A stretch of 64,000 nt of DNA from Octopus vulgaris. Its lineage: Eukaryota. Location of the stretch: positions 85,808,001 through 85,872,000 of the forward strand of contig OX597824.1 in NCBI GenBank assembly GCA_951406725.2, written 5' to 3'. A program made the position numbers and the translations under genes. Under the pieces are notes generated by a model, which was not told the DNA's origin, made no database searches, and saw nothing but the letters and a program-made list of their open reading frames with translations. Below are positions 12,168-48,148 of the stretch, in pieces. The number at the start of each line of letters is the position of its first letter. Positions within the stretch are counted from its first letter, which is position 1.

Positions 12168-14361
12168 ATGGGATTATCACTGTCGTGTAACGCAAGCGCC
12201 CCACGTGACATTGGCTCTGAAGCTAGCCCAGGGCTTCTGCCTGTAACTGATCTAATCGGTAAACGTTATCCATTCACAAACCTTGTCTTCGAAGGATGCG
12301 GTGTTAAAGGCTATGCTTTTGTTGGAACTCTGAAGGTATTTTCCCCCAACATCTTTGGTATTTCTCTAAAAAAAAAAAAAAATTGTTATTAAGTTTATTG
12401 ATTTCGCTGGTCCTGATCCTGTCTAAAGGCATTTTCAGCTGTATTACAAACTGTATAAAAGAACTGTAAAATGAAACTGCGAGCTTTGGGGTGCCTCGTA
12501 AGCCATTCCCTTTCTCCATTACAAATAACTCATTTCATATTAATCATTCATTAAATGTACCCTAAATTTTGTGTTGTATGTACTTGTAATGTCCACTTTG
12601 TGTTTTCAGGCTATATGCCTATAATAAAGAGATATAAAGGTGTTTTCGGCCTTTATTGTAAGTTTTTAAAGAAATATTTTTCAATATAAAAATTAAATTT
12701 TGCAGTTCCATCTCTTCGTGTATCGTCTTAAGTTTCTTCCTTTCACAATCCAACAGGTCCTCGAAAAAGTCGGTATTCTCTATAATATTAAGCGATTCGC
12801 AGGAATGGGTAGCGGTGCTATCGTAGCTTGCCTCTTGGCTATTGGTTATGATGCAAATTCTGTGCAGTCTCTACTTGATATGCACCTGCAAAGCTTGACT
12901 GTCGGTAAGCTTTTTTTTCTTCTTTCCTTTTCAGTTGACGAATTACATTTCGTTAATCTCATTCACCGTTGATTAGAAATTTTACTGTTCGGAATGTACG
13001 AAATTTAGACCTTCTTGACTAACTTACTAACGGGCTCCGAAGTCTACAAATCAAGTTTCTGATTGCTATGAATGAACTGTGTATCGTACACCGTGGATAA
13101 TTGACTGAAAATGATGATTGTGTATATTCTAGGACTGAATATTTCGTATCGAATTTCCAGCCTTCTAATTTCCATTTCAGATCTTCAATATACCCCCAAT
13201 GTTAGCCACGAAGAGGCGCTTGGGTGGAAAGACGGCCGTAGATTTCATGATTGGTTAGGAGAAATTTTGACACATAGGTTTCAAGACGCTGACATTTCCT
13301 TTCAGCAGGTGAGAGCATGGTTTTTAATCTGGCGCAAGGTTGTTTTTCACCCCTCACCGCATTCTCTCTTACCGTGGTGAGTCTGCTGTGAAGATTTTTT
13401 TCCGTTTTTAAAATGGAACTCTTTTGATTCCAATTAATTTTCTTTTCATTATTTCAGTTATACGACAAAATTGGTCATGAGCTGTGTATTCCGGTCATGA
13501 ATTTAAATCAAAATAAAATGGAATATTTCCACCCGAAGACTACTCCCGACTTTGTCATCCGACGGGCAGTTTCCTTAGCCATGTCTATCCCGGGTAATTT
13601 TTTTCTTTTAATTTGTTTCGGTCATTAGACAGCGGTAGTGGTAGGGCACCGCCTTGAATTTTTAGTCGAATAAGCTTACTCAGGTGCTGATTCTGTTAGT
13701 CTCTGTTATCGAATCGCTAAATTATGGGACGTAAATGCACAACGCCGGTTGTAAAGTGGTGAAAACACACACCATACACACGACGGTGGCCTTTTTTCAG
13801 CTCTTTCAAATCTTCGCTAGGATTTTGTCCCATTTGGTAATGTTCCTTTTGCAGCAGTTGAACTGTTAAGTGATTTACTAATTATATTTAATGCAATTTT
13901 CGGTTAAAATTGGTTCTCACTTGTATTGATTGAAGGCGCGTAGTATAATGGTTAGGGTAATCGGTTCACGATTGTAAGGCCGCGAGTTAGATTCCTAGTT
14001 GCGAGTTGTGTCCTTGAGAAAAATACTTTATTTCACGTAGCCCCAATCCACTCAGCTGGCAAAAAGGAAGTTGTACCTGTTATGCAAAGGACTAGTATTG
14101 TCCCACTATTGTGCTGAATCTCCCCGAGAACTGCGTTAATAGTATTCATGTTTGTGGAGTACTCGGCCACATGCGCATTCATTTCACGAGCAAGCTGTTC
14201 CTTTGATCGGATCAACTGAAGCTTTCGTCGTTGTAACCGTGTGCCAGTTTTGTATTGAATAGATTTTTCCTAGCGAATTCGCCTGCCTCAACTTCACTTG
14301 CTTCCAGGAAAATCTCTTGGTTGAATTCGCGTAATTTTTTCTTATCTTTTAAATGATTAAA

Positions 14362-14393
<32 letters not shown>

Positions 14394-17300
14394 ACATCTG
14401 AATTCTTATTTTGTGACTTTCGATTAATTCTATTTTCTCTACAATTTAAGCTAGTTCTGCATAGCTTCCAACTTAATTTCTCGCTGATTTAGTTGTAAAT
14501 GTACTTTCCCCCGTTGTACTTCAGTGAAATTTTTTTTTTTTTTTTTTTTTAATTTTAACAGAAAATTTTTAGTTCACAAAATATTGTAACCTGACTAATA
14601 TTTAGTTGTCAAGACTAATTGGCTAAATTATTCGAACTCGACCCGTTATTCTTTTAATATAGGTATATACCGTCCCCGCAAATTAAGTCTGGGTGAGTCC
14701 TCCGGAGATTTCTACATGGATGGTGGGATTATCTGCAACTATCCAATTCACTGCTTTGATGGTATGTGCAGCAACTTTTTTTTTTTTTTTTTTTTCTAGA
14801 AAAAAAAAATTGTCGCAGATCTCATGAGCTTTGAAATTCTTTTGTAGGATGGTGGCTATCGATGGAGCCCGGTGACCGCTTTCTTCGCAAATGTCAACCG
14901 TCTGTTAACTTGAGTTCTTTGGAGCTTGACTGTTTCTTTGGATTTAACCACATGAGTCTTGGCATTATGACGGTAAAGTGATTTTTTTTTTCTTCATAAA
15001 TGTTAATCATTTTAATGTATTTCGTTGGTTAAATCTACAAGTTGAAAGTTTTTTTAATCCTATTTGCTCCTTAAATGTTTGATTAAAACTTTTTCATAAG
15101 TGCCTGTAGTCTCTTAAATTTCAATAGCATCCGTCAAATCTGTTTGATGCAACTTTTTTTTTTTTCCAGTTTGACGATTATCACAACGATGAGATATACG
15201 ATATAATGAAACGGCGACTTGACCAAACCGGAGGCGTTGTCCCTATGCCAGCAACCGAACTTAGCATGTAAGTATTTTCTTTCTCACTGACTTTTCAATA
15301 ACGTTCTAAATCTGTATTAAAATGATCTCGAGGTCATCGGTGGCAATATTTAGTGTAATGCACTTTTCTGAATTTATTTTTATTCTAAGGAAATGGAAAG
15401 AGGCCAGAGAAAAGCTGCAACAGATGCAACTAATGTGTACGGGCTTTGAAGAAGCCTATGAAAAACTAAGACATGTGAGTGTCCTCCTCCCGCTTCTAAA
15501 TTAGATCTTAAATTCAAGATTAAGTTTTTGTCTAGCCCAGTGCAACCCTGGTGAATTAGAGCTATGATAAAAGGCTTACATAATTATTCATTTTTATGTA
15601 TCTTGGATATGCATGCTTCTCTCTAATGAAATAGTGGGATTTAATAAGAATTTGACCCTTTTCTCTATCAGTATTCTTAAACTTGATAAAAGGCGGCGGG
15701 TTGGAAGAATAATTAGAACGTAATGACGGGCAAAATCCAAAGCATTTTGCTCAGCGTGGTGAGTTCAAAGGATCGACTTGCCTTTTTTCATCTTTCATCT
15801 TTTTAGGTTCAAGTACCAGTTGAGCACTGGGGTCGATGTAATCGACTTAGCCCCGCCCCTTAAACTGCTGGTCATATGCCAAAGTTTGAAACATATTTTA
15901 GACTCGATAGCTTTTACCTTTTTAATACTTGGTTATGTAACTTTTCAGATTTTGGAGACACTTAAGGGAACTGACAACTTAGTATCCATAGTTAACTTGG
16001 TAGGAGAAGTGACCAAAGGCGTGAGTAAATTATTTTTCGTATGTAATCCATACCATTATAATCCATACCATTATATACGTAAACGATTAGTCTGCAATCA
16101 TAAGGATTTTTTGTTTCAAATGCATTTATGTAGCTTTCATTTCTTTTTTCCTAGAATAATTTCAGTACGGCTGAAATCAATGTATTATTTGGAGTGGGTA
16201 ACAACGCAAGAGAATGTTACGAATTGCTTCGAGCATATGCCAACAGTGATGATAGGGTAGGTTGTCAAGCTTGAATTTATTTTGCCTCTAAATAATTGTC
16301 TGCAAGATAGATTAACCTAGCATTTTAAACTTTTACAAACCGGCCAGAGCCAGCTTAACGTGTCGTACAATGTTTTCTTTTTTAAAAAATAAGTCATATT
16401 ACCGAAATCTAAAAACTGAGATGATGCATGATTAGTTTGAAACCACGTGAATGATATTTGATTGAGTAATCCGAATGCTAAAAGGTGATCTTCCTATATT
16501 GTCTTTTAGATGCCAGCTTTCAAGGTGGTGTCTTTTGTCGAGAGAAGACACTGGCAGTCTTTCTACGACTACAGCCAGATAACACCAAAGTTTGCAGTGA
16601 ATAATTTGTCTTCATTTTGGGGAGCGGTTAATAGTGTATCGAACGAAAAGAACAAAGCAGTTACGGTAAGTGCAGCTTTTTCTATATTTGTTTTTATATC
16701 AATTTTCCAAGTAATTAAGAATTGTTAAAGACATCGAATTTAAGTACTTTTCGTTTCCTGAATTTTTGTTTTTAATTATATTGTCATTTTGTGTTGATTT
16801 TTAAATTTAATTTTGTGTATTTATCATTCGTAAGTCTGACACCAAATCAGATTGTAGTGTCCCCTCTATGTTCGCCCCTTGTGGGTAATAAAAAATCTAA
16901 ACAGAGCTAGGACCACTAGCGGTGTCGAATGAGGACGGCACTTTGGGGTCTGTAAGCAATGTGCTGCTTGTGGGATCCGGGGGTGGTAAATGGATGGGCT
17001 GCCCCGGGCGGCACATATTCTAGCTACGCTAGTTGGCTAAGGCATTATCTTCAGGTACCTGGTTTCAAAATAATTAAAATCCACATTATTTTGCCAGATT
17101 TGATATAATTTAAACGAGGGCCACCTTAAATCTTAACTTGGGTTGCCCCTCACCGGTATTGTCATAACGAACTGGCAGAAACGTTAGCACGCCGGACGAA
17201 ATGCTTAGCAGTATTTCGTCTGCCGCTACGTTCTGAGTTCAAATTCCGCCGAGGTCGACTTTGCCTTTCATCCTTTCGGGGTCGGTTAAAGAAGTACCAG

Positions 17301-17933
17301 TTACACACTGGGGTCGATATAATCGACTTGATCTGTTTATCTGTCCTCTCTCTCTGTGTTTAGCCCCTTGTGGGTAGTAAAGAAATAGGTATTGTAATGA
17401 GTTGTGCCGAACTACGTCAGTAACAAATGTCAGCACGGAATTTTGTCAGTGAACTGGTCGCAGTCTCTAAGCGACGAAAATATTTTGACAAATTAAATTT
17501 AAATGAAGTGAATCTAACGGATTTTGTTTCTTAAATGGCTTATAAACACCTTCCACACTGCAATTATTTTAAATTATATAAATTCACAATTTGACGACAG
17601 TTTAGAAACTTTCAAGTTTTACTTTTGATATCTAACCTCCAGAAAACCGATTTGTTCCGCACTGTTGGCATCTACACTGGTCACGTTACCAATAATGATG
17701 ATAGCCTGCATGAAGCCGACGCAGCCTACCTGTATCAGGTGAGTTTATATATTTCTATTCTAAGACCGCCATTCTCACCAAGAATGTCTTGTGTAATTTC
17801 AACTTTATTATTTTTTTTTCTTTAGCATGGTTGGAACTGCGCTGTGGCATTCTTGCGAGATATCACCCAGATGTCCATGCCTTCCACGTCAGGAGTGAAA
17901 AGCCTGCTATCTAGTAGTTCAGATACTTCCTGA
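12168..17933 (+). CDS. Patatin-like (ExoU/VipD-type) pseudo-phospholipase paralogue A, 13 exons, 506 aa
   Basis: GT-AG exons 12168-12335, 12757-12904, 13181-13308, 13458-13593, 14663-14761, 14848-14972, 15170-15267, 15390-15474, 15949-16020, 16155-16256, 16510-16665, 17643-17738 and 17826-17933 join in frame (1521 nt). Motifs: NLVFEGCGVKG, FAGMGSGA, AMSIPG, YMDGGIICNYPIHCFDGWWLSM, RTVGIYTG. AATAAA at 18086-18091. Confidence 0.9.
16800..16897 (+). mobile_element. Very short 3' tip of the Tx1/L1 LINE in intron 11 of paralogue A
   Basis: tctgacaccaaatcagattgtagtgtcccctctatgttcgccccttgtgggtaataaaaaatc is nearly identical to 11898-11962. Confidence 0.75.
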
Positions 17934-19289
17934 ATCCGAGGACGAATCCCTTTAAACGAATTTTGCATCAACAATGGCTACGAATACCCGAAAATCTTTG
18001 ATCAATTTGAACTCGTCTAAAATTTGCAGTTTTTTTGTTTGTTTCAACGAAATAGTTTATGGCTTTAATGAATTGTTGTTATCGAAATAAAGTTTTACAA
18101 CGAATGTATGTGGTTATATTTTTTGTTCACAATATATAATCGCTTCAATAGAAGCTAAATGTTAAGATGACTACGAAGTATTAATATTTATTATGCATAA
18201 ACACCGTGTATTAAATATACAAAACTACATTTAAGACCAGTGATGTAATCGGTAGAAAAATGACTGTCCTTTGCAGACGGTTTCGACTTCAAAACAAACT
18301 TCATCGGATTACTGAATAATCGACGTACAATCTTCACTTTACCTAAAATAGTTATTCTTTTAGTCCCTTTTCTATATTAACCCGCATAAAACGCCGTCTA
18401 TTCAACAGGACCTGATAGATACGGCAATCACTTTCCCTCGAATCGCAACCAATTTCCTCTACCTAAGACGATCACGACTTTGAATAAGAATGTGTTACCA
18501 GGAATTATCTCCTTCATTAACACGAGCTCAATGGAGATAAATCAACATATACTCTTGGATTGACTTTTATCGACCCAGAAAGTATGAACTGCAAAGTCGA
18601 CCACGGCAGAATTTGAACTCAGAACGTAGACAAACGAAATACTGCTAAGCATTTCGCCTGGCGTGCTAACGTTTCTTATTTCTTTATTGCCCACAAGGGA
18701 CTACACATAGAGGGGACAAACAAGGACAAAGTGATTAAGTCGATTATATCGACCCCAGTGCATAACTAGTACTCATTTAATCGACCCCGAAAGGATGAAA
18801 GGCAAAGTTGACCTCGGTGGAATTTGAACTCAGAACGCAGCGGCTGACGAAATACCGCTAAGCATTTCGCCCGGCGTGCTAACGTGTCTGCCAGCTTGTT
18901 GCTTATATAGCGGAGTAACTCAATTTCTGTAAGTGGGGGGAATAACATCGTTTTGCCACCATCATACTGCTTAAATTATTTCCTAGCTATTAACCATCTG
19001 GTGTTGAAGTGACGTGACACAAACTGAAATATATCGGAAATAATCCTTCCAATGACGCTATTTTAATATTTCAGCCAGTACAGGCGGCGAGCTGCCAGGA
19101 TCGTGAGCACGCCGGGTAAAGTGTTAAGAATTTCGTCTGTGTTTTAGTCGTTTAAATTCCATCGATGCCGGCTTTACTTTTCGGAGTCGATAAAATAAGG
19201 ACAAATTGAACATTAGGAGCAATGTAATAGCCTAATCTCCTATCCTCAAGCTTACTGGCCTTGTCAATTTAAAATCAATTTCAGCTAGT

Positions 19290-19500
19290 CGTTGGCACCA
19301 ATCGTGTTTTGTTCATCGGGTGCCTCAATGATGCTTAAACCTGACGTGGTTTAGAAAGCCAAGTCGGGAATGGAACGGTCTTGGGCATTGACTGCATGGC
19401 AGGGCGGCTGGTGGTCTTGGCTGGAGTTCTGGGCCTTGCGTTGCCTTTTTGCTGCTGCTTTAATCTTTATCTTCGCGAAAGTGGAACTGCTGGAAACAAT
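19290..19500 (-). mobile_element. RTE-like LINE 3' fragment with C-terminal C2H2-like motif
   Basis: The minus strand encodes KIKAAAKRQRK and CPRPFHSRLGFLNHVRFKH, typical of RTE/BovB ORF2 ends. Confidence 0.55.
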
Positions 19501-22373
19501 TCGATATTTCAGAAAATTCAGGAGGCAATTTCGTTCAGAATTTTGACGTTTATCGCGGAAACGTCTCCACTACTTCCTGAAACTAAATCGTTAGTCAAGA
19601 CTTTAGTTCTCTCCACAATTTGAGGACTGCGTCAGAGTAATCACTATTTACAACCTGGAACATTGTCTTTTACTTCGCAGTGCTGGTCGCCAGTGATTGA
19701 CAGAGCTGTAGACATTTGGGGGGGGGGAGCTACGTAAGGATGCGATCTACATTAATACATCGAATCCTTTGGTGAAACAATTAGTTCTCGCAGTGCAGAA
19801 TGCTCTTGCTGTATTCATTCTCTTCAGACATTGTGCTCAAACTGCATGGAGCATATAGGAAATGTTCTCCAGTTTCTCTGATTGTCATGATTCTATGCCT
19901 AGTTCCATGCTATGTAGAGATGATTGCCAGGTAGCTGAATTGAAGTGAAATATTAAAAATAATGCATATCTTCTGATTTGTAACGGGTAAGATTGATTAA
20001 ACATTATTATGTCAGTTGTCACGATAAAAATTTGTTATTGTATGTTGTAGGATGTGAAAGATGAACAATGCATGAAGTTTTTATTTACCGTTACCTTACA
20101 AATACTTTGCCTCGACAGGCAGGTTATGATAAAGCTGAAAGCATGCGAAGTAAAGTTTGTGTTTGTGTCCTCTTCATTGTTTAGTAGTAATTACAGAGAG
20201 ATAGAATGATGTTTTAAGAGAACAGAATTAGAGCTAGTAAGAGTTGTATGGTGTGGGACGTTGTCTCACAGTTGCTGACAGTAAACTTCATTTCTCCCTC
20301 TGACCAAGGTTCTAGCTTGTCAACCAGACTTCGTCGTCACTGAAGTGACTACTTGGTTGATGATTTTTTTATTACCCACAAGGGGCCAACAAAGAAGGGA
20401 CAAATATATCACTGAGAACAATAGATTTAGTTGGTGGTCTTGTTATCTCTATTCTAGCTTTTGGTGAAGTAGAAGAGGTTAGAAAGAGTAAAGTGGTGAA
20501 GACATTATTTCGGCCTAGCTAAAGGCATCTGGAAAATGTAAAACTGCTGCCAGAGAAAAAACATTGTTCCATCGTGGAGAAAAGTTCTGTTGCAGTGTTA
20601 ATTTAAATTTGGCTATGGTGGATCGAATCCACTTCATGCATGCAAGATCCACTAGATTCATCATATAGACTATTAGCAGAAAGTCACTGGAATATATTTT
20701 TTTCCGCGAGACTAAATTTCTCTAGATGGAAACATCAACTGTAACGATAAATAGCTTACCATTGAAGGCAGCGAGCTGGCAGAATCGTTAGCACGCCGGG
20801 CGAAATGCGTAGCCGTATTTCGCCTGCCATTACGTTCTAAGTTCAAATTCCGCCGAGGTCGACTTTGCCTTTTATCCTTTCGGAGTCGATAAATTAAGTA
20901 CCAGTTACGCACTGGGGTCGATGTAATCGACTCAATTCCGTTTGTCTGTCCTTATTTGTTCCTTCTATGTTTAGGCCCTTGTGGGCAATAAAGAAACAGA
21001 TAAATAGCTTACCATTCAATGAAAGTATTTTCTTAGCATGATAAATATTTACTATGCAAAGGGCATACAACCCTGTAGCCATTTAATCTGCCTGGACTGT
21101 CTTAATGTATGGGAACACTGAGCAATTGTCTAAGGGGTTCAATTCTGATCCGTTTTGGATTGCTGCAAATAGATAGTATAGGTGCCCAGTGCATTGATTT
21201 GCCCTAGAACATATACTAAGACAGTCCTGCAATCTGCACCACCTTTCGGAACGGGGTGAGAGGAAGGGTCACTGCACATACAGTGAACGTAAGTTATTTT
21301 TTCGAGTTAGTCATTTTGGTTTTCGTAACTTTCTCATTCTGTACGCTAATTGGTCAAAGATTTGTATCGTTTGTGTGTCTGTGTTTGTCCCCCTAGCATT
21401 CCTTGACAACCGATGCTGGTGTGTTTACGTCCCGGTCACTTAGCGGTTCGGCAAAAGAGACCGATAGAATAAGTACTGGGCTTACAAAAGAATAAGTCCC
21501 GGGGTCGATTTGCTCGACTAAAGGCGGTGCTCCAGCATGGCCGCAGTCAAATGACTGAAACAAGTAAAAAGAGAGAGAGAGAGAGAGAGCAGAGAGATAT
21601 TTGGGGTATTCATATTTTGATAAATTCGATCTATCTGTAACGGCGGCTTTCTAATTAATCAATAAAATCCCTAATCGACTGAGATCGGGCGTTGATGTAT
21701 GAAATACTGAGATATGAAGTAAAATAATTTTCTAAATCAATAGATTTCAGTTGATATTGGACGAAAAGTTAATCCTTTTCAATTCATGAGGATAGATGAG
21801 GTATGTGTGTACACGCGGGCCTAGCAGTGTAGCAAGTTAGTTCCCCCAACCACATGGTTTCGGTTTCAGTCCACTCTGTGACACCTTCAGCAAGAGTCGT
21901 CTACCATAGTTTGTCCCCTACCGACCCTCGAAAACCGGTGCTGGTGCAATTACGTCCCCGTAACTTAGCGGTTCGGCAAAGGAAACTGCTTGAATAAGTA
22001 CCAGGCTCTAAAAATGCAGGGATCGATTCGTTCGACAAAAATTCAATGCGGCGCTCCAGAATGGCCGCAGTCAAATGACTGAAACGAATGAACACCACTC
22101 AATATTTGTAAGATGTCAAGAGAATGTAAGAAATCGTCGCGTGAGTAAAACAGGCAAAGTACTTTCCCAGAATATTCGAAAGAACCTTCATTTATATGAC
22201 CAAGTGTTAAGCTTCCGTATAAATAAAGATTACGGGATGAAGCAAAATTACGGAGAATATTACAACTGTGAGCTTGAAAAAGAAAATAGAAATTGATGTT
22301 TAAAAAGGGTAGAAGATAAGTCGAATAAAACTAGTTAATATACTGACGTTCAGAGAAGTATACTCTTTACTCT

Positions 22374-22925
22374 TGTAGTGACGCTATACAGCGGCGCGCG
22401 CGCGCACCGTCCATTCCTGTTTCGCGCGTGCGGGTTGGTACTTTCACCACCGGAAGTAGGAATTTGCTGACGTGGCGTTTGGCTTGTATGGCGAAGGGAA
22501 GGTGAACCTTAAAAGGGGTCCGGAGTGATAGTAGCAGCAGGCAGTGACTTGAGACATGGCTATCGAAGGTACAACACGTATATTCTCTCTGTCCAGCTTT
22601 GATAGCAGTCGGCCGAAGGTTTTTACCAAATTGTTGCGGACAACATCATCTTCCTTTCTCCGGACGCCATCTTTGACAAGTGTCGTTTTGCATTTGAACA
22701 CTTTCTTATTTTACAGCGATAAGGTTCAGCTGAGACATATCAATACCAAAGGGATGCCAGATACACCAATTATCTGTTACCACATAAGAGAATAAAGTAT
22801 ATCTATTTTTTACGTCTGCGTTTTGTGTTTCTTTGACTGGTAGAATCTGGATTATCAAAGCAACGGAAAGTGATTGCTTCTCGCACCCGCAAAAGGTCCA
22901 GAGAAGATATTCACATTTCCTTACA
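22374..22925 (+). mobile_element. Solo LTR (Gypsy-like)
   Basis: TGTA...TACA termini with a 4-bp TSD CTCT on both sides. CpG-rich U3, TTAAAAG at about 22509 and AATAAA at about 22790. Confidence 0.7.
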
Positions 22926-23126
22926 CTCTTTTACTTGTTTCAGTCATTTGACTGTGGCCATGCTGGAGCACCACCTTTAGTCGAGCAAATCGACCCCGGG
23001 ACTTATTCTTTGTAAGCCCAGTACTTATTCTATCGGTCTCTTTTGCCGAACCGCTAAGTTACGGAGACGTAAACACACCAGCATTGGTTGTCAAGCAATG
23101 CTAGGGGGACAAACACAGACACACAA

Positions 23127-23188
<62 letters not shown>

Positions 23189-23794
23189 CGACAGGCTTCT
23201 TTCAGTTTCCGTCTACCAAATCCACTCACAAGGCATTGGTCAGCCCGGGGCTATAGCAGAAGACACTTGCCCAAGATGCCACGCAGTGGGACTGAACCCG
23301 GAACCATGTGGTTGGTTAGCAAGCTACATACCACACATCAATGAAATTAATTAAAAAGCAGAATTTGTCGCGTCTGTAAAATCGTGCAATGAACATAGTC
23401 GATGTTTATTCATCTTCAGTTGCAGTGAATTATTCAGAACCGAGGAGCGTGGGTTCAAATTTCAACTTGTCGATAGTTTTTGATTTCAGTCTGATGGAAA
23501 TGTCAAACAATAGAAACTCGGTGGAATGCAAGAGAAGCTGCAGCAGATAAGTTTCTCATAGCTGCACACACTTTAAAACTGTTAACAGGCGAATTAAAGA
23601 CTTACTGGTGTGCGCTGCTTGATCGTCGCAAAAGCTTCATTTTGGTTCCCCCACAATCATGTCCTTTTGCTTACGATGATCCACTTAAAAAAAAAATAGT
23701 GACAGACTAAAATATAAAGTTGTGGCTTCGAAAGCATTTCTCAGTTGAAAACAGGTGTGTTATGAGGCAGTAACAGGCAGTAATCTATAGACTG

Positions 23795-24206
23795 GAGTCA
23801 GGCAATTTCATCTCTGGCCCTGGATTGGTGAATTACTTCATCTTCCACCTGAAAAGGAAAATAGGGCTGGAGAGAAAATGCCTGACTGAGAAAGTGTTTG
23901 AAAATCGATGGAAGAGTGAAGCACGGATGTTGCGTGTGGATGGAACCGCATGAATGCAAAACAGGACGAAACCCAGGTATCAGTGGCGAGGCGGGGGGGC
24001 TCCGAGCTAAACCCGCCCCCCACTCCATCCATAATGTCTTCCGGTTTGTCTTAGCATTTGATTTCTCCGATTTCATTATATGTTTGTAATTATGTGTAAA
24101 TTTCCAATTTCATTCTTTGTGTAAAATCATTCTTGAATCTGACCCCAAATCAGGTTGTATTGTCCCCTTTGTGGGTAATAAAACAAAAAAAAAAAAAAAA
24201 AAAAAA
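23795..24206 (+). mobile_element. 5'-truncated 3' end of the same Tx1/L1 LINE family with poly(A)
   Basis: High similarity to 11560-11955 (gagtcaggcaatttcatc...ctgaccccaaatcag...tgtgggtaataaaa), followed by an A-tail. Confidence 0.88.
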
Positions 24207-26134: not shown

Positions 26135-29100
26135 TCAATCTTCAAGGTCCGTGGTTTTCGATTCAGTTGTCTGTTCCGTTGTTGTTTCGAGCTCTTGGTC
26201 TGGTTCATCTGGCGGTGCCTGGGTACTGATAGATACCATTTCTTCTGGTGTTATAATCGATAGGGCGCCGAATTGTCGCAAGAAGGCCACTGTGCAGTTC
26301 CAGCCATGCTACAAATTAGAAAGTTGCAGTTATAGAAGACAAAGAATTTGACGGAGAAACGAGTCAAAGAAATCGAGGACTTACTTGAAATAAATAGATT
26401 TCGTCGGCTTCATCCAGGTCAATATCATTATTGGTGATATGACCAGTGTAAATACCAACAGTACGGGTCAAGTCGGCTTCCTGGAAGATAAACAGGAGGA
26501 GTAAGTTCAACCATCTTATATATGCTGATGTTGTTACGTCAACTATATACAACGATACTTACCGAAGTCAGTTTATTGGTTTCATGGATAGCGTTATTAA
26601 TTGTCCCCCAGAATGAGGATAAATTGGTTATATTCGACCTTGCTGACAATTTACTATAGTTGTAAAAATTGCGAGAGGTTCTTTTCTCAATAAAACTTAT
26701 AATTTCAGTAACTGGAAGCTGAAAGAAATAAGAGTGAAAAGTTTACCAAAAAAATCCAATACAAGTTTAGGTATATCTAAGGCCAACCAACTCACCATCT
26801 CCTTGGCATCAAAATGCTTTTGGAAAAAAGCAAGGCACTCATTTTCATTATTTTCAACTCCAAATAACGACCGAATTTCTATCGCAGAGAAAGATTCCTA
26901 TAAACAGAAAAGTGACCAAACCCATTTTCAAATGTCCGTGTATCAAAGTGAACGATAAATACGATTTAGAAGAATTTAGTTTCAACGCTTACTTGGTTGG
27001 TTATCTCCTTTGTCAAGTCAGAAACCGATGCCAAATTGTTGCAGTCTTTGATTTTCTCCAAAACCTGTTTATGGACAGGAATTCAGTTATATTTAAAACC
27101 ATTTGCATCATCAGGATTAAGCTAACTTTATTATAGCCACAAGGGCTCAAAAGGATTAAGCTCAATAGACAGATTTAAATTTGAAAATTTGTAACTTACC
27201 CCACAAAGCTTTGTCATGGCCTCTGGAAACTCCTCAAATAGCATTTTCATCTGCTTAATATTTTGACAGACCTCTTTGTATTTCCTTTAAAAGAAATACA
27301 ATTTAGTTGAAACTAAATGCCATCAGTTATAAAAGTTAAGTTCGTATTTAAATAAAGATTAAATTATCTGAAGTTATAGTCTACGCCCACTCCGTAGAAT
27401 TGGTTTACTACTCAGCTTGCCATACAGCATATGTACTCGTAAAATACTTACTTGCCAAGGTCGCTTTCGGGTATGGCGATAGCAGCTTCAGTAAGATCCA
27501 GGCGTTCCTTCATTGTTTTATATGTCTTAGCGGTGTGGTAATCGTCGAACTGGATTTAAACGAGAATACAAATTTAATGCGCTGAGAAACATGAAGTCAA
27601 AATTCAAATTTTTTTTGAACGATAGGCTTTAGTGTGAACAATTTCGTAGTTCTTGGAAATTCTTACAGAAACTACACAGTAACTTACGTTATTCCATTTT
27701 TGTAAATTATTCCTGTTTACTGGTATTCGTTAATAAACAAGGATAGCTCGTGATTAACTGGGACATCTTTATAAACCAGGATACAAAACTGAACGCAGTG
27801 GACTGCAGTACTGAAACGAATATAAAAGTGGGGAAACAAACTTACCATGATAAATCCGAGGCTTTGGGAATTGACGCCAGAGAAACGTTCTCGATGCAGC
27901 GTTCTAATATCAGGAGTTGGACATTTCTGAAGAAATGAGTTATAGGATTCCATCGATAGCCACCAACCATCGAAGCAATGAATGGGGTAGTTGCAAAGTA
28001 TCCCACCATCCAGGTAGTAGCTTTCGGGGGAATCAGCGACACTAAATTTCACAGGCTGGGACAAACCTATTAATAAATTTATGAGTGATAAGTATTCAAA
28101 AACGGGTTTCCAACGGTCATGGGAAGAACAGAAACGATTTTATGGAAATTAAGAGTCAAGCTAGGTTTTCAAAATATAGAATTGGATTCGAAGACAAAAT
28201 GAAGCAAAATAGTTAGGGCAAGAGGATAAAAAAATTTTCTAAGTGGGCAAATTTACAAATTATCAGGTAATATAGGCTAAAAGCTACATTGAGTTGGTCA
28301 AACGTCTAACTTAAAAACATTAATTTTTAAATGTTGGAACAAGACAGCAAACCATTAGGTTACCGATGAGGAAAATTGAACTGTAGATTGCATAATTACC
28401 GGGAACAGAGATGGTCATAAGGACTGCAAGACGAACAACGACATCAGGTGTTGTTTTGGGGTGGAAATATTCTTCCTTCATTCGGTTTACGTTCACAACA
28501 ACAATACACAATTCCTTGCCAGTCTTTTTGTAAAGCTGAAAGTATGAACAGCAATTAGTGTTAGAATTGTTCTCCCAGTACATATTCTTTGTAATAAAGA
28601 CATGCATTGTGTACTTACCTCTTGAAATGTTATGTCAGCGTTTCCACACTTTTGCGTTAGAACATTGCCGAACCAGTCAAAGAATTTTTGGCCAGAATTC
28701 CAACCGAATTTCTCGAACACCTCATCTTGGGTAACCTCATTAGTGCATTGGTTGTCTGAAAAGGGTAAAAAAATTTGTTCTAGATTAAGCTTAGTTGCCA
28801 CACAGGGATTTAGTTTTTTTTGCCGTGACTTCCGAATGCCAATAAATGTAGATCTAACAACAATTACCAAGAGTTAAACGAAAGATATCGAATCCTAAAA
28901 CTGCAATTTTAACGATGCTGGAATCAGTTATAAACACTAATCTCTCTATATATATATTATATGTATATATATAAAGCTGAAATTGTCTGTGTATGGCAGC
29001 CTTCAACTAACACTATATCCTCCGAGACCCTGCGGCAAAAGTTGACCAAAATTGAGAGTACGATAGAAGGCTTGCTCTTCCTTCCGTAGAAGGAAAAGAG

Positions 29101-30063
29101 AAAGAAAGAAAAAAAAAAAAAAAAAATCAAATCGGACCATGTTAACACCAAAAAGGTGCTTTTTTTCCTATGAAAATCCCTATTTTTTAACGATTTTTTG
29201 ACTGTGTCGTCATTTTTCGGTATATTGCAACCAGAAAAATGTTCACTTAAAAGAGAATAACAAGCTACAGGATGCAAAATTTTTACTTTTCAAAAATTAT
29301 AATTCTAAAGGGTCGAAACAAACCATAGCAACGCCGGGCGATACTGTTAGTTACGTATACAACAATACTATTTATTAATTGCAGTGGAGACACCTATTCG
29401 AGTAGGTAAGCAATAAGTTTTCTATGCAAAATTATCGAGGGAGAGAGTGACAGTATTAACGAATATCAAAAACTTTTCTTACCAATCAAAAGTTTTTCCA
29501 GATGTTCACTGACAGTCTGTTGTAGAGAATTGCAACTGAAACCAGCGGCCAAAAGACAGGCTACGATAGCACCAGTTCCAACACCACTAAATCGTTTGAT
29601 ATTAGAGAGAATGCCAGTTTTCTCGAGGACCTGCAAGATTTCCAGAAGTTTAAAAGAGAAGTGTTTATTTGAACAAAATGTGGCTAAAGAGTTTATGAGA
29701 ACGAGGCTTCCGATTGCGATTAATGTAAGAAGCTTCAAGTTTAAAAAGATATAAAACTACAGTCAGTAGATGAAAAAAAGATACGATAGCTTTAAACTGT
29801 ATATTTAAGTACTAATATATTTATCAGAGTAATTTAAAAGAAGACAGCGTTTGCGTATTTTAGAAATAGAACTATTGAATAAAAGAAAAGGGGGAAGATA
29901 AAAATAAACTTACTTTTAATGCTCCGGCATAAGCAAATGCTTTGGCACCACATCCTTCAAAGATTAGATTTTCAAATGGGTACTGCTTTTTCTTAAGGGA
30001 TGTTAGAGGCAGAAGTCCTGGGCTCGATTCAGATCCGAGGTTACGTGAACTTTGGTTTCCCAT
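26135..30063 (-). CDS. Patatin-like pseudo-phospholipase paralogue B, 12 exons, 524 aa
   Basis: Minus-strand exons 30063-29914, 29630-29483, 28755-28619, 28535-28400, 28066-27846, 27549-27452, 27284-27200, 27064-26993, 26897-26796, 26718-26563, 26480-26385 and 26308-26135 join in frame (1575 nt). Motifs: FENLIFEGCGAKA, FSGVGTGA, YLDGGILCNYPIHCFDGWWLSM. Acidic, Thr-rich C-terminal tail. Confidence 0.9.
28940..29351 (+). mobile_element. Helitron-like element in intron 2 of paralogue B
   Basis: Shares the 3' end caacgccgggcgatactgttagt with 59135-59156 and has a TA-rich 5' end. Confidence 0.55.
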
Positions 30064-30100
30064 GTTGCTGGCGTCAGTCCTCGTTGAGCTCTGACAATCA

Positions 30101-30160
30101 ATATTTATAGCTTGTTTAAGACCTATGCAAATTTGAGTAGATTCCATTTGAAATTGTTCC
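30101..30160 (-). promoter_or_regulatory. Promoter of paralogue B: octamer ATTTGCAT plus TATAAAT
   Basis: ATGCAAAT at 30125-30132 (+) and TATAAAT on the minus strand at 30103-30109. ATG at 30063. Confidence 0.6.
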
Positions 30161-30454
30161 GCCCGTTTTTATTTTACGTGACCAGGTGAAGTGAAAATTA
30201 CCTCCGTGAATTGCAATTATATTACTGAAAGTTTTAAGTTCAGTTCCTGCCCGTTCTATTAAAGTAATGCGTAAAACAAGTAAAATTTGTGGATAAAATT
30301 TTTCATCTGCTTTCTTTTCTATTTTCCATCTGTTTTCTTATCACATGACATGTATTGGGTTACCGATTTATAGTAGCTAACCTTTCGACTTATTTTAGAA
30401 CATAATTGAGTTCATAAAATAGGATTTGACAACACCTCCATTTAGAGCACAATT

Positions 30455-30904
30455 TAAGCTTTTCGTGGAAGAAGGTTCATGTTCCTATAACCTGTATTAA
30501 TTCTGTAACCCTTTAAAAATGGAAGATAATAAAGTTCATTTTCGGCACTTGATGCTTTGGGAACCAGACAAAAATTGCTGCAGCTTGGCTGGGATGTGTT
30601 ACCCCACCCTCCATATTCACCAGATATTGCTCCTTCGGATTTCCACTTATTCAAGTCTCTGCAGAATAGTCTTAATGGTAAAAATTTCAATTCCTTCGAT
30701 GACATAAAAAGATACCTTGATGAATTCTTTGCCATGAAACTACCTCAATTCTTGGAAGAGGGTATTTTCAAGTTAAAGGAAAGATGGAGATGTGTTGTGC
30801 AACCAAATTGGTCATATTTGGTTGATTAAAAATGTAATGGCAAGTATTTATAGACCTTTTTCTTTCCTTTAAAAATCTGCACGACCTTTCCGGACAACCC
30901 AATA
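30455..30904 (+). mobile_element. Internally deleted mariner element
   Basis: The N-terminus MEDNKVHFRHLMLW is fused directly to the C-terminus LGWDVLPHPPYSPDIAPSDFHLF (mariner YSPDLAPSD motif). TIR-like end ...ttccggacaacccaata. Confidence 0.85.
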
Positions 30905-35405: not shown

Positions 35406-35692
35406 GGTGTGGTTGTTACTTTCTGTTGTTTCCTTTCTGTTTCTTATCGCCAAATTCTCCCTCTTTGTTTCTCTCTCCTTTCTTTCTCACTTTCCCACTC
35501 TCTTACTCTTCCTTTCTCTCGGACTCTCCCTCGCTTTCTCTTACTCTCTACCTTTCTCAATCTATTTCTCTTCCATTTATAAAAAGATTAGATTTCCGCG
35601 CTTAAATTACTAATCCGCTTCGAATTTACCATGTTGAAAAGTAGATTGAAATCGGGCAAAAGGTGTCCAATCTTAAAATGACTTAGCAGTTC

Positions 35693-41218: not shown

Positions 41219-44200
41219 CTATTGCTTCTGTAGTTGACGCAAGAAAGCCACTGTACTGTTCCATCCTTGCTGAAGAAAGAAATTTGCAATTACAGAAATA
41301 CTATAAGGATACGATATAGAATTGGTAGTAAACGATAAAATGTGAAGACCTTACCTGAAAAAGGTAAGTTTCGTCAGCTTCCTCAAGTTTGACATAATTA
41401 CCAGTTACATGACCAGTGTAAATACCAACGGTACGTTTCAAGTTGTCTTTCTGTAGGTGAGAAAAATAAGCCAAAGCTTTTAATGTCATTCGACTATTTA
41501 CAAAAGGAAAATAAAAGCGGTTAATAGGTACAGAAATGTTTGTGTGACAAAGAAATTCTTTGCCACCACAGGTACCCCAGGTTGTCCTGTGGAACCTACT
41601 AAAATACCAGGTCAACTGGTGCTTTACGAGTAGTTTCGGTAGAAGGAAACTGGTAGTACGTCAGCTGAATGTCCACCGTTTGACAACCGCTGACAGTTTA
41701 TTCACGTCCATATCGTCTAGCGATTTCGACAAGAGACAGAACAAGCCTTAAGACCTGGATTGACTTGTTCTACTAAATAAAGGCGGTACCCCAGCATGGC
41801 TGCAGTCTAACGACAAAGAAAATATAGGAGATATGCTTACCAATAATTTACCGTTTCCGTGCGCAACACCGTTGATTGCACTCCAGAATGAAAGTATATT
41901 CGTCACTTCAGTTCTTGATGTACGCTTGTTGGACTTGTAGAGAAAGCGACTGGTCTGATCAAGAAAATACAGCAGGTCAATAATTGCGATCTGTAAGAAG
42001 AACAAGACCTTTTAGCCTTCACATAGCCCCAATGAAACTAAGAATAAGAACAACCCTACTCACCATCTCTTTGGTACTGACATTCTTCAGTAGTTTCGAA
42101 CACTGGTCTTCGTTCTTTTCAATGCCAAACAATGCTTCGATGTCAGTTTGAGTGAAATTAGATTCCTGCAGAAATTAAGGTGGGTTAATTAATATATATA
42201 TATCGATAGACGTAGGAGTGGCTGTGTGGTAAGTAGCATGCTTACGAACCGCATGGTTCCGGGTTCAGTGCCACTGCGTGGCACCTTGGGCAAATGTCTT
42301 CTACTATAGCCTCGGGCCGACCAAAGCCTTGTGAGTGGATTTGGTAGACGGAAACTGAAAGAAACCTGTCGTATATATGTATATATATGTCTGCGCGTGT
42401 ATATGTCTGCGCGTGCGTGTATATGTTTGTGTGCGTTTGTCCCTCTAGTATTGCTTGACAATCGATGCTGGTGTGTTTACGTCCGTCACTTAGCGGTTCG
42501 GCAAAAGAGACCGATAGAATAAGTTCTGGGCTTACAAAAGAATAAGTACCGGAGTCGAGTTGCTCGATTAAAGGCGGTGCTCCAGCATGGCCGCAGTCAA
42601 ATGACTGAAACAAGTAAAAAGAGTAAGATATATATATATATTTCTTTACTACCCACAAGGGGCTAAACACAAGGGACAAACAAGGACAGACAAACGGATT
42701 AAGTCGATTACATCTAACCCAGTGCGTAACTGGTACTTAAATTATCGACCCGAAAGGATGAAAGGCAAAGTCGACCTCGGCGGAATTTGAACACAGAAAT
42801 ACCGCTAAGCATTTCGCCTTGCGTGCCAACGTTTCTGCCAGCTCGCCGCCCTTACAAGGTGGGTTAATATAGTTAAATGAAATTGTGCCAACGATATTTG
42901 TTATAAGCCACTGGTGAAGGCAAAACAAAGTTGTTTTTTTTTTTTTATATTTACCTTCCCGGTCAATGTCTTTACCAATTGAACAACCGACACTAGATTA
43001 CTATCACTTTTTTTGATTTTCAACAAAGCCTGAAAGTATAAATAAAGTGTTACTATACTGAAGCAGCCGTATGCTAAAAGAGATCGAATCGGCGATGGAA
43101 ATATCTTAAAAGAAATAAGTAGCCATTTTGGTACGAACAGCTTCAAGCTTTTTGGTAGCTTCTGGAAGGCTCTTGAACAAGTCTTTCAATTTATCCTCAT
43201 TTTCCACGTCAGCTTTGTATTTTCTGGAAGAAAAAAAAAAAGTGGGGAAAATATTGTTAATATTTGTGAAAAATGCTGTAAGAACAGAAATCAGTCTAGA
43301 AAGTAACCTCGTTATGTCTACACCACAAAATAAGAGGCAGATCTTTTCGGTTTGAACGGCAGTTTTTTCTAGTGGCGTCATGAAATTGTCACCCGTAATT
43401 ATGACCCTAGAATTGATCTATTGCATTTCAATCCGTTTTAGGGCATCTTTTCTTCTTCACAAATATAAATAAACCCAATCGGCTTCTTAAACGAGGGACA
43501 TTCATACGGCACAATGCTTTTTTACTCAATAGACGTCAGTGATTGGTTGAAATTGCAGAAATTTAAGAAAACAATCTACAAACTAGAATTTTCTCAATAA
43601 AGCCAAGAGATGTTTTATAAACACATTCTACCAGTATACGAAGTTAAAATTTTTTTAGTTATCTAGAAATGTTAAAAACTGCAATTCAAGCCGAAAAGAT
43701 CCGAAATATGTAACTAAGCCCCGGCTTATAAAAGTAGCAATAAAAAAAAAAAAAAAAAAAAAAAATTAAAAAAAATCGATGCGTATGAAACCTTAGCCGT
43801 GCTGCACATGGTTAATGAAATTAAGGATAAGCAAGATCTAAGATTTTTATTGCGAAGTCTCGGCTACTGAATTACTATTAGAATTCTTACCTGCCAAGTT
43901 TGGTTGTCGGTATAGGGACCACTGCTTTATTTTGATGTAGTCTCAGTTTCATTTCAATGTCCACTTCACCATGGCTGTGGGAATCGTCAAACTATTGTAG
44001 AAAAAACATTTTAACGACCAAGATTTCAATTGGGATCAGTTAAGTAGGTGATCAAATATTTTTTAAGATCGATGTAAAAATTACGCTTAATTTATTGTTT
44101 TACTTATAAACCTTACCAGCGCGAATCCAATGGTTTTCGAGTTGTAACTAGAGAAGCGTTCTCGAATCAGAGTCTTTAAGTCAGAAGTTGGTTGATATTT

Positions 44201-47200
44201 GTGAGGGACTTTTTTTCCGGGTTCCATTGAAAGCCACCAACCTACAAGGAGTTTTAAAACCAATTAAACAGTACTAAAGATTTAAATCCTAAAAAAAAAA
44301 AAAAAAAAAAAAAACTTACCATCAAAACAATGGATGGGGTAATTGCAGAGAATTCCACCATCTAAGTAATAGTTTTTGCGCGATTTTCCTGTGTTGAATT
44401 GAAAGGGTTGAAAAAGACCTGAAAGATACAAAGTGAGGAACCCCATTATTATGGTATGAATGTTCTGTTGCATAATGATCATGCAGAAGTAGGGGCCAAC
44501 ATCATAAGGGCTAGCACCTATGCATTTGGGGTTTAGGCAGGATAAATCAAGAACCAATAGTAGGAGCACTCCGTCGGTTGCGACGAGGAGGGTCCCAGCT
44601 GATACTATCAACGGAACAGCTTGCTCGTGATGTTAACGTGCAAGTGGCTGAGCACTCTACAGACACGTGTACCCTTAACGTAGCTCTCGAGGAGATTCAG
44701 CGTGACACAGAGTGTGACAAGGCTGGCCCTTTGAAATACAGGTACAAGAGAAACAGGAAGAAAGAGCGAGAGAAAGTTGTGGTGAAAGAGTACAGCAGGA
44801 TTCACCACCACCACCACCACCACCACCCCCTGCCGGAGCCTCGTGGAGCTTTAGGTGTTTTCGCTCAATAAACACCCACAATGCCCGGTCTGGGAATCGA
44901 AACCGCGATCCTCCGACCGCGAGTCCGCTGCCCTAACCACTGGGCCATAGCATCTCCACCAAGAACAAATATACAGTAGGACACCAGCTAGATTTAAGAC
45001 AAGACAATTAGAAATAAATTTTAATAGCTTAAATTTTTGATAAGGCTCAAGGCCGGGTTAGAAAAGTTTCTAGAAAAACAATCGCCGACAGTGATAGGAA
45101 AATTAAGTGAGTTTTACCATTAATAGATGCGTTTGTTTCAATTAATCGAGATTCAGTGTGAATGCTAGTTTGGTGATAGTTTCAAAATGTTGGCACGAGG
45201 CCAGCAGTTTCGGGAACGTCGACCCCAGTACTCAACCGGTTCTTATTTTATCGGCTTAGGATTAAAAAGGCAAAGTCAACATCAGATTCTGTACTTGGAA
45301 CGTAGTGGCAGTCGAAATGTCGCTAAGCATTCAACCCGGCGTACTAACGATTCTGCTAGCTCATCGTCTTTGTTCTGTGATGTTGACTACCAATCCACTT
45401 ACACAGAACTATTGTTTATAAGCTCAATCCGTTTCTTAAACGAGGGGCATTTTCATACGGCACTGAATGTTTTCACCTCAATAGACGTCATTGATTGGTT
45501 GAAAGTGCAGAAATTGAAGAAAAAACAAATATCTTACAAACTATAGAATTTTCTCAAAGCCAAGAGAAAAAGATGTTTTATAAACACATTCTATGTTAAA
45601 CAAGCAAACGAGAAACAATCGATAAAAGTTACCAGGAATACTTATGGACATCTCAACTGCCCGACGGATAGCGGTAGTCGGTGTGGTCTTGCAGTGAAAG
45701 TACTCTTCTCGCCTACGGTTTAGATTCAGAACTACGATGCACAACTCCTTGCCGGTTTTCTCATACAGCTGGAAAAAAAAAAGTGAAAGATTTAGAACAG
45801 ATTTAAGCTACTAAAGTGGCGACTAGGAAATATCAGTCAATGTCTATCAGGGTTGACGATACCAAGTACTCACCTCTCGGAACGTTATATCGGCGTCTTC
45901 GTATTTCTCCTTTAGAAGAGTCCCTAACCAATCAAGGAATTTATTGCCGGAATTCCAACCAAACTTATTAAGCAATTCATTCACTTGACCCTTTTTGTTG
46001 TAGTGGTTGGCTGAAAACAATACAAACGACAAGTTTCAAAAGTTATAGCTTTCTCTCCGCTACCGTCGACAAAATCTAAAAGTACGCTAGATCCTGCATT
46101 AAAGGCATTTTGGTGTGTAGAGAAAATAGTTGTAGGTTTCTACTATAAAGTAGAAAGGGATGCATTAGACCAGAGATATTAGATTTCTTAAAGCAAGCTG
46201 TTTAATGCATTCATTCAGGACCTGTAAAGCAACTCGCGTTAACAAAAATACTTCAGCAGTAAAGCAAAATATGGAAAGCAAGACATCGACCGTTTCGGAT
46301 CTTTTCGGTTTGAACGGCAGTTTTTTTTTTAATAATTTCCACGTAACTAAACACTTTTAAACTTAGTATACTGGTAGAATGTGTTTATAAAACCTCTTTT
46401 TCTCTTGGATTTATTGAGAAGATTCTATAGTTTGTAAGATTTGTTTTTTTTTCCTTCAATTTCTGCATTTTCAACCAATCAATGACGTCTATTGAGGTGA
46501 AAACATTCAGTGCCGTATGAAAATGTCCCTCGTTTAAGAAACAGATTGGGCTTACTTACATTTGTGAAGAAAAAAAGATACCCTTCCACCCACCCCTAAA
46601 ACAGATTGAAATGCAATAGATCGATACTAGGGTCATAATTATGGTTGACAATTTCATAGGACACCGCTAGTAAAAACTGCTGTTTAAACCGAAAAGATCC
46701 GTGTGTGTACGAAAGCTGTGCAAGCTATAAATTAACAATGGAAAGCCACGAGCACAGCCAAGGACATTTTTAGTAGCATTATAAGACTTCGAAACTTCAA
46801 GCAAAGCAATGCACCGTGGCTTATAATACTTATTGATTGCAAGTTACAGAAGTGGGTATTCTCTAGCCTCGTGGACCCCACAATCAGCTACCCAGGTGTG
46901 CAAGACAATATTGACACTGTCCGTTCCTGCGCAGAGAATTGTTCTGTTAACGACAAATAAGATTCAAACAATCCTGAGGAGTTTTTTTTTTTTTTATAAG
47001 TCTTAAGGTAAACTTTGTAAAGACAAAGGCTTTAGTATCTAAGAAAGACAGGAACCCCAGGACTTTCAAGCAGATGACACGAGAACACTGAAATGAAATG
47101 AAGCCAGTATGCTCCGTTAGATTTACAATGTAAGTGCGCATGAACGACATAGTCCAAATATGTCGAGAGAGAAAAAACTGTAGAAGTCATAAAAACCTCA

Positions 47201-47935
47201 GGAGTTCTTTTTTTTTTTTTTACCCTTGTTCGTATAGAAGTGACATGCTTACCAGTAAGTACATTTTCCAAGTGTTGTTTGAGCGAGTCTCGCAGAGCGT
47301 AGCAGTCGAAGCCTGCAGCCAAGAGACACGCTACAACAGCACCAGTGCCGACACCAGCAAATCGCTTGATTTTAGGAAGAGCATCAATCTTTTCGAGGAC
47401 CTGTCGAATTACAATAGTAACAAAATTAAGTTTGAATTGAAAGACAACGGAGATTAATCAAAGCAACAAATGTCGATTCGACATTTTAAAGATGGAAAAA
47501 AAAAATGGGGTTAATATCGACCATAAGTAAAATTACGACATTGAATGCGTTCGAAGAGCGTCATAATTGATATCGTTTGTGGTAAGTAGCTTGTTTACCA
47601 ACCACATGGTTCCGGGTTCAGTCCCACTGCGTGGCACCTTGGGCAAGTGTCTACTATTATAGCCTCGGGCCGATCAAAGCCTTGTGAGTGGATTTGGTAG
47701 ACGGAAACTGAAAGAAGCCCGTCGTATATATGTATGTGTGTTTGTGTCTGTCCCCCTAGCATTGCTTGACAACCGATGCTGGTGTGTTTACGTCCCCGTA
47801 ACTTAGCGGTTCGGCAAAAAAACGATAGAATAAGTACTGGGCTTACAAAAGAATAAGTCCCGGGGTCGAGTTGCTCGATTTAAGGTGGTGCTCCAGCATG
47901 GCCGCAGTCAAATGACTGAAACAAGTAAAAGAGTA

Positions 47936-47970
<35 letters not shown>

Positions 47971-48148
47971 AAAGCATTACCTTAATGGCTCCAACGTAAG
48001 CTAATGCTTTGGTCCCGCATCCTTCAAAAACGAGGTTTTCAATCGGATATTGTTCATTCATGAGATCTGAAAGAAGTAAAAGTCCTGGGTTTGATTCTGA
48101 ACCGGAATTATCCGTTGATTGCGAGTCTGTTGACTGTCCGCTGCCCAT
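41219..48148 (-). CDS. Patatin-like pseudo-phospholipase paralogue C, 13 exons, 490 aa
   Basis: Minus-strand exons 48148-47981, 47400-47253, 46010-45874, 45768-45633, 44418-44320, 44241-44117, 43991-43891, 43223-43139, 43029-42955, 42165-42064, 41990-41841, 41450-41355 and 41269-41219 join in frame (1473 nt). Motifs: IENLVFEGCGTKA, FAGVGTGA, YLDGGILCNYPIHCFDG. Intron phases match A. The exon 8 donor (GTTCGT) is weak. Confidence 0.88.
43339..43702 (+). mobile_element. ~400-bp MITE (TIR GGATCTTTTCGGTTTGAACGGCAG), intron 7 of C
   Basis: Inverted termini gatcttttcggtttgaacggcagtttt / aaaactgcaattcaagccgaaaagatcc. Other copies at 46297-46700, 56797-57203 and (partial) 45420-45593. Confidence 0.8.
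46297..46700 (-). mobile_element. Same MITE family in opposite orientation, intron 2 of C
   Basis: Same TIRs; the internal sequence is the reverse complement of 43339-43702. Confidence 0.82.

Follow-up and report, generated by a model that had tools for sequence, protein, structure and literature searches.

Three intact patatin genes of Octopus vulgaris without the catalytic serine and their apparent origin in a patatin–EF-hand family

Introduction

What is a patatin kept for once its catalytic serine is gone? This question is raised by a stretch of 64 000 nt from the Octopus vulgaris assembly GCA_951406725.2 (contig OX597824.1, positions 85,808,001 to 85,872,000 of the forward strand; hereafter the window). 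It carries three genes, here called A, B and C, for patatin-like proteins with Gly in place of Ser at the nucleophile elbow. An initial annotation, made from the letters alone, regarded them as possible non-catalytic lipid or ligand sensors, scaffolds or structurally recruited proteins that were duplicated after the serine had been lost. We find that A, B and C are intact and under purifying selection, and their sequences place them in the patatin domain family, outside the canonical active phospholipases. Sequence comparison indicates that the serine-less copies of coleoid cephalopods derive from an uncharacterised invertebrate family that combines a patatin domain with EF-hands. Canonical catalysis has probably been lost. 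As to function, we propose, with support and doubt in about equal measure, that these proteins act as regulators without catalysis of their own. Tethered to membranes, they would hold phospholipid and pair with partners of patatin fold, among them probably the parent enzyme that still has its serine.

Three spliced patatin genes without the elbow serine

Gene models in the window were built by a six-frame motif scan followed by exon-by-exon assembly from coordinates. This yielded three uninterrupted spliced patatin genes with GT-AG borders at all introns, in agreement with the three full-length reading frames of the initial annotation, whose outer limits coincide with the start codons of A (12168) and C (48148). 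The three proteins share 45–54% identity in pairwise comparisons. Intron phases, said to match throughout, do so for all introns except that B lacks intron 5, which splits CFDG/WWLS in A and C. The motifs were found as described, with Gly at the elbow of each gene, the oxyanion loops EGCGVKG (A), EGCGAKA (B) and EGCGTKA (C), and both NYPIHCFDGWWLSM and DGG in all three. A search with the Pfam Patatin profile (PF01734), which had been suggested as a check, gave 68.8 bits for A, 88.6 for C and 77.2 for the O. sinensis orthologue of B. These values are above the gathering cut-off of 27.7, so that the assignment is not due to chance. The public label ‘NHL repeat-containing 2-like’ of the proteins P0124 (A), P0004 (C) and P0003 (paralog D, see below) looks wrong, since Pfam gives Patatin and no NHL repeat.

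Gene A occupies 12168-17933 on the plus strand, with 13 coding exons (12168-12335, 12757-12904, 13181-13308, 13458-13593, 14663-14761, 14848-14972, 15170-15267, 15390-15474, 15949-16020, 16155-16256, 16510-16665, 17643-17738 and 17826-17933) for 506 amino acids (aa) identical to the NCBI Octopus vulgaris protein P0124. Its altered Gly-rich oxyanion loop lies at 12291..12311, the elbow GMGSG at 12802..12816, with the codon GGT of Gly74 (12808-12810) replacing Ser, and the kept DGG at 14719..14727. Gene B, on the minus strand (30063-26135), encodes 524 aa in 12 coding exons (30063-29914, 29630-29483, 28755-28619, 28535-28400, 28066-27846, 27549-27452, 27284-27200, 27064-26993, 26897-26796, 26718-26563, 26480-26385 and 26308-26135) and matches the O. 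sinensis protein P0001 at 99.4% identity; its elbow GVGTG is found at 29571..29585 (Gly68, codon GGA at 29579-29577) and its DGG, also kept, at 28002..28010. Gene C, likewise on the minus strand (48148-41219), has 13 coding exons (48148-47981, 47400-47253, 46010-45874, 45768-45633, 44418-44320, 44241-44117, 43991-43891, 43223-43139, 43029-42955, 42165-42064, 41990-41841, 41450-41355 and 41269-41219), and its product of 490 aa is identical to NCBI Octopus vulgaris P0004. The elbow GVGTG of C is located at 47341..47355 (Gly74, codon GGC at 47349-47347) and its kept DGG, containing Asp216, at 44354..44362. Most of a helical insert, with an EF-hand pair in degenerate form at about residues 310–410, is encoded by exons 8–10 of C (42064..43223) and by the same exons in A and B.

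Origin and date of the serine loss

By searching the 2.8-Gb genome that contains the window with exon 4, we found at least six loci: A, B, C, a fourth serine-less paralog, D, and two loci on C9. D (P0003, C1:115866345-115886476) has the elbow GVGTS, the loop EGNNVKS and 13 exons of identical phases, and it is the serine-less copy most conserved towards O. bimaculoides (92.8%). The C9 loci are two Ser-intact patatin–EF-hand genes in tandem (86461290-86509286 and 86548160-86584735) with the motifs GASAG, EGGGNKG and DGG. One of them was fully mapped and has all intron positions but one, with their phases, in common with the window genes; the second is known by tblastn only. No further patatin copies or remnants were found in the window and 10 kb on each side of it. 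No recent segmental duplication was seen; DNA similarity among A, B and C is confined to exons (67–79%) and shared repeats.

Homologue searches revealed a large uncharacterised patatin plus EF-hand family with members, among the matches listed, in molluscs, annelids, echinoderms, hemichordates, amphioxus and Trichoplax. Its proteins are 30–39% identical to those of the window over nearly the full length and show the same motifs, the hhalign probability is 100 over 460 columns, and the intron pattern is shared; the Ser-intact paralog on C9 also has the C-terminal GWN motif of the window genes. Members of this parent family have GxSxG, GGGxK and DGG and, in most cases, a canonical EF loop. From the window genes the Ser, one Gly of the oxyanion loop and the EF loops are missing. 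Three points go beyond the initial annotation: the EF-hands and the probable N-terminal myristoylation of the parent family, the additional loss of the EF loops, and the persistence of two Ser-intact paralogs in the genome.

For the analysis of residues we chose 122 near-full-length rows out of about 290, with Ser (98), Gly (22) or Asn (2) at the elbow. Eighteen of the Gly rows are coleoid, nine of them octopod and nine ‘cuttlefish-type’, a label that rests only on their place in the tree beside Sepia pharaonis P0265. In a careful tree of 43 rows, 11 serine-less rows from Octopus, Argonauta, S. pharaonis (P0265) and ENA records formed one clade (support 100/100); the bootstrap of this tree is not fully settled, and the same clade was recovered in further trees. 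It divides into octopod (100/99) and cuttlefish-type (100/98) branches, each with its own expansion. Argonauta carries orthologues of A and C, and the elbow Gly is the same in four octopod species and Sepia. Because the coleoid serine-less rows form a single clade, the loss is placed before the duplications, as the initial annotation had supposed, and at or before the split of octopods and cuttlefish. This split gives a minimum age; no sequence from Nautilus or a named squid was among the homologue matches listed. Grouping with the octopus Ser-intact paralog as sister is absent from the careful tree and was not rejected by the approximately unbiased (AU) test (P = 0.54).

A second set of Gly-bearing proteins is of annelid type (P0157, P0168, P0179, P0189, P0210, P0184 and P0294), with Helobdella (P0189) as the only named member. 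Here the elbow reads GSG[ST]G, DGG is mostly lost, and a DD..SEI motif at the C-terminus is common to the full-length members. These rows are nested in a 100/100 clade with one Ser row and an Asn-bearing Paralvinella row, which suggests a loss separate from that in coleoids, although the union of both serine-less sets was not rejected (AU P = 0.42). As further elbow variants we noted Asn in P0180 (Lottia) and P0008 (Paralvinella), Gly in P0218, and in P0231 a serine-less domain (GTGTG) that comes after an intact patatin domain.

Selection on the serine-less genes

Codon models gave a ratio of nonsynonymous to synonymous rates (dN/dS) of 0.30 for A, B and C, with twice the log-likelihood difference from a ratio of 1 being 142; values of 0.25 and 0.35 fall inside and 0.20 and 0.40 outside the 95% profile. 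A ratio near 1, named in the initial annotation as evidence against a selected family, was therefore not what we found. The ratio decreased to 0.22 once D was added. It amounts to 0.13–0.20 in the patatin core and to 0.40–0.53 in the helical insert. All these values are rough, as they come from paralog comparisons with dS of 1.1–1.8, and dS by the NG86 method is saturated for most pairs involving D or the Ser copy. The elbow codons are GGT (A), GGA (B), GGC (C) and GGA (D), so that the silent position has varied under a maintained Gly.

That the genes are decaying pseudogenes or an assembly artefact is hardly credible in view of these data. The orthologues of B and C do change fairly fast (84–88% identity to O. 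bimaculoides), but the identity of the Ser-intact paralog is no higher (83%), and the open frames, the spliced RNA-like runs described below, the dN/dS of 0.22–0.30 and the Gly common to the four octopod species and Sepia all speak for maintained genes, as had been claimed.

Adenosine-to-inosine (A-to-I) editing reads A as G. Restoration of the Ser by RNA editing was rejected for this reason, because A-to-I editing cannot convert GGN to AGY. The Ser codon of the mapped C9 gene, AGT, is one A-to-G step away from Gly, so that editing could in principle disable it.

Residues lost and kept across the clade

Besides the elbow, where all 18 coleoid serine-less rows have Gly and 98 of the 122 family rows the aligned Ser, several further sites of the active centre have changed. 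The Asp of DGG is lost in half of the clade (9/18), being kept in eight of nine octopod rows versus one of nine cuttlefish-type rows. The oxyanion loop pattern GGGxK/R is replaced by GCGxK in A, B and C, where the Lys is kept. The second Gly of this loop is present in all 98 Ser rows and in eight of nine cuttlefish-type rows, and is Cys or Asn in all nine octopod rows. The loop Cys, which had been called invariant and considered as a possible alternative nucleophile, is thus variable (Asn in D, Gly in eight of nine cuttlefish-type rows), and we rejected this candidate. The mostly missing Asp in cuttlefish-type rows and the variable Cys favour the pseudo-enzyme reading.

A canonical EF-hand loop, scored with a regular expression, was observed in none of the 18 coleoid serine-less rows compared to 69 of 98 Ser rows; correspondingly, Pfam EF-hand matches were obtained for three of three Ser and none of seven serine-less proteins scanned. 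A myristoylation-like N-terminus, likewise scored with a pattern, occurs in 13 of 18 coleoid serine-less and 54 of 98 Ser rows. Structural residues, among them G53, R69, G72, E159, P181, P224, D229, G230, G268, R448 and D468, do not vary across the 18 rows, and the blocks HxKTTP and NYPIHCFDGW flanking the pocket are kept as well.

Predicted fold

An AlphaFold2 model of C from the 122-row alignment reached a predicted local distance difference test score (pLDDT) of 91.9 and a predicted template modelling score of 0.90, compared to a pLDDT of 68.1 with a 9-row alignment. The model shows the patatin alpha/beta fold in full. In it a strand (69–72) runs to Gly74 at the turn and is followed by a helix (75–84), and for this reason no other Ser occupies the elbow, a possibility that the initial annotation had asked to be checked. 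The closest solved structure by sequence is VipD (E-value 4e-28). Fold comparison gave CapE (Z 25.0, root mean square deviation 3.2, 268 residues aligned), VipD (24.3, 2.8, 252), PlpD (23.7, 3.0, 245) and patatin 1oxw (22.9, 3.7, 279). The bacterial proteins VipD, ExoU, PlpD, CapE and CapV match at Z 18–25 with 13–22% identity and differ from the window genes in carrying the Ser-Asp dyad and activator domains of their own. Residues of about 310–410 match EF-hand lobes at Z 6–7.7, which is middling, and the EF-hand rows in the alignment may have pulled the model in this direction; the insert of C has no Pfam EF-hand match and no canonical loop. A search of the ESM Atlas returned family-level matches only, and none for the insert.

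The kinship in fold to CapE and CapV, which are ligand-activated to judge from titles, would also suit stand-alone sensors or carriers of lipids or second messengers without any contact to the parent lipase. The low dN/dS of the core and the kept blocks flanking the pocket are compatible with such a role. However, residues of the oxyanion loop differ freely among the copies, and we consider this explanation quite unlikely.

Transcripts of A and B

Four RNA-like runs from four studies, none of them recorded as RNA, were mapped to 11800-30500, which covers A and B. They were used for spliced joints only, as contig depth is unable to rank the genes. All 11 introns of B were exactly skipped in each of the four runs. 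For A, run X2 showed, among the joints listed, splicing at 15474/15949 and 16020/16155, and among the pieces listed some that cover the first and last exons. Six of the seven coding differences listed are synonymous. In X2 the contig of A ends 5′ at 12152, with a template-switch adaptor tail, and the transcript of B ends 5′ at 30080. Both ends lie about 30 nt downstream of TATA-like boxes (12119-12126 on the plus strand for A, 30109-30102 on the minus strand for B), and from their position it follows that the short frames of A and B starting with MG are those made in X2. The 5′ ends of B are longer in the remaining three runs (30217–30296). The longer B transcripts carry an upstream in-frame ATG, as in P0001, which would bury the MG start that the TATA-driven start exposes; A has a comparable upstream ATG at 12138.

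Sharp, TATA-driven 5′ ends might be expected of proteins of enzymatic origin that a single tissue uses in bulk or for structure, a recruitment reminiscent of the S-crystallins, and the separate expansions in octopods and cuttlefish-type rows as well as the relaxed insert would fit. Nevertheless B is present in the runs of four studies, the N-terminus resembling a membrane anchor is kept, and no paper in the literature searched names the genes A, B and C, so that we regard this origin as very unlikely.

A regulatory role and the evidence on both sides

We return to the proposed role as regulators. In this scenario, an ancestral coleoid copy of the patatin–EF-hand gene would have lost its Ser by one transition from AGY to GGY, the intact paralog having AGT. 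No longer needed for chemistry, the Asp, the oxyanion loop and the EF loops would have decayed along a different path in each lineage, and the fold of the core would have stayed throughout, as would the MG motif at the N-terminus. The outcome would be a calcium-insensitive binder, brought to the membrane by its myristoyl group and likely holding lipid in the old pocket. By pairing with patatin-fold partners it would damp or position the activity of the calcium-regulated parent lipase. If canonical catalysis is indeed lost, a role as regulatory partner becomes reasonably likely. A wider version, which we offer tentatively and consider less likely, sees a dedicated coleoid family of pseudo-lipase subunits: calcium-blind serine-less patatins would assemble together with a patatin lipase under calcium control and govern its output, octopods and cuttlefish would have expanded them separately, and the change of Ser to Gly with Thr or Ser at the next position would have occurred again in annelids.

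Weak support for such a pairing comes from the prediction of C in complex with the Ser-intact P0075. It scored 0.45, compared to 0.00 for the best control. Among 157 solved pairs 116 attain the mark applied, and among 215 mismatched pairs 2 do so; with a score of at most 0.60, however, it is attained by only 18 of the 157 and by both mismatches. At least 50% of the contacts agree between runs, and the pLDDT of the partner is at least 73.

Several observations weigh against the regulatory role. As C and P0075 are paralogs with overlapping alignments, and patatin oligomers have been solved (CapV, CapE), the predicted complex may show only likeness to those oligomers. Moreover, A, B, C and D keep DGG, the loop Lys and a Thr or Ser directly after the elbow, as a shifted nucleophile would need. 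Thr or Ser occurs at this next position in all 18 coleoid and three of four annelid-type serine-less rows, compared to 3 of 98 Ser rows; a count without alignment over 292 sequences gave 43/45 versus 7/192, in which few lineages are counted many times. In addition, plant patatins of the pPLAIII group, which have GxGxG without the Ser and often lack the Asp, are reportedly still active in hydrolysing acyl lipids (PMC7031755, PMC4623698). The statement of the initial annotation that patatins need the Ser-Asp dyad has with them a published exception.

The genes could accordingly encode weak or altered acyl hydrolases, similar to pPLAIII, that use the Thr or Ser after the elbow, or water, together with Asp216. 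However, the rows with this hydroxyl mostly lack the Asp in the cuttlefish-type set (eight of nine), as does the Argonauta orthologue of A, and in annelid-type rows the position is Gly in three of four and Glu in one. Residue 75 furthermore opens the helix in the model of C and is not the elbow itself, which fits a role as helix cap, and the coupling of Gly and the following hydroxyl represents only two or three evolutionary events. Taken together, we consider an altered hydrolase unlikely, and the fixed Thr or Ser beside the elbow (18/18) leaves room for some residual chemistry.

Serine-less patatins as such are already known. According to the available portions of the papers on pPLAIII (PMC7284883, PMC4204433, PMC7031755, PMC4623698), these plant proteins share with the window genes the exchange of Ser to Gly at the esterase box (GMGSG, GVGTG and GVGTG in A, B and C), form an expanded subfamily as well and keep DGG in some members and not in others, as in the coleoid clade. 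They differ by the anion box DGGGxxG/N instead of EGCGxK, and the same portions mention no EF-hand insert. The nearest kin of the window genes are animal proteins; our trees contained no plant sequence. The kind is also not new because a serine-less patatin of Toxoplasma, TgPL1, is described as inactive (PMC10513453); it is the product of one parasite gene, has its role at the vacuole and the cyst wall, and was likened to the window genes by description only. In NDRG, neuroligin, gliotactin and thyroglobulin a hydrolase fold with replaced catalytic residues serves scaffold or interaction roles (PMC7022630), although these alpha/beta-hydrolase proteins belong to a different fold superfamily and offer an analogy only. 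Each of the nine human PNPLAs has the Ser-Asp dyad (PMC7365478), and PNPLA8 is the only patatin mentioned in the available part of PMC10329180. We found no description of an animal serine-less patatin, and no paper naming the gene ids or accessions of the window, in the literature searched, which largely excluded subscription journals; topic searches there likewise brought up nothing about this family, judged by titles and the openings of abstracts. The genes are absent from the readable supplements of PMC9712504, PMC9068888, PMC13218726 and PMC7656900; the remaining expression tables of PMC9712504 may name them.

What the coleoid genes add are old, selected, multi-copy serine-less patatins of an animal, with the intact parent in the same genome as a built-in positive control, and an entry to an uncharacterised invertebrate lipase family linked to calcium. 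The natural series Ser+Asp, Gly+Thr+Asp and Gly+Thr+Asn bears on how GxGxG patatins such as pPLAIII hydrolyse lipids, and its steps address whether GxGxG patatins are enzymes or binders.

Surroundings of the genes in the window

A non-LTR (long terminal repeat) retrotransposon with RVT_1 and zf-RVT domains lies directly upstream of gene A (9238-11718, plus strand), and a related non-LTR 3′ fragment was found between A and B near 23800-24100. Between B and C we observed a broken Tigger/pogo-like transposon with DDE_1 and CENP-B_N domains (32436-34065, minus strand). An exon at 57976-58233 on the minus strand gave no match in a Pfam scan and resembles ribonuclease kappa or the V-ATPase subunit f.

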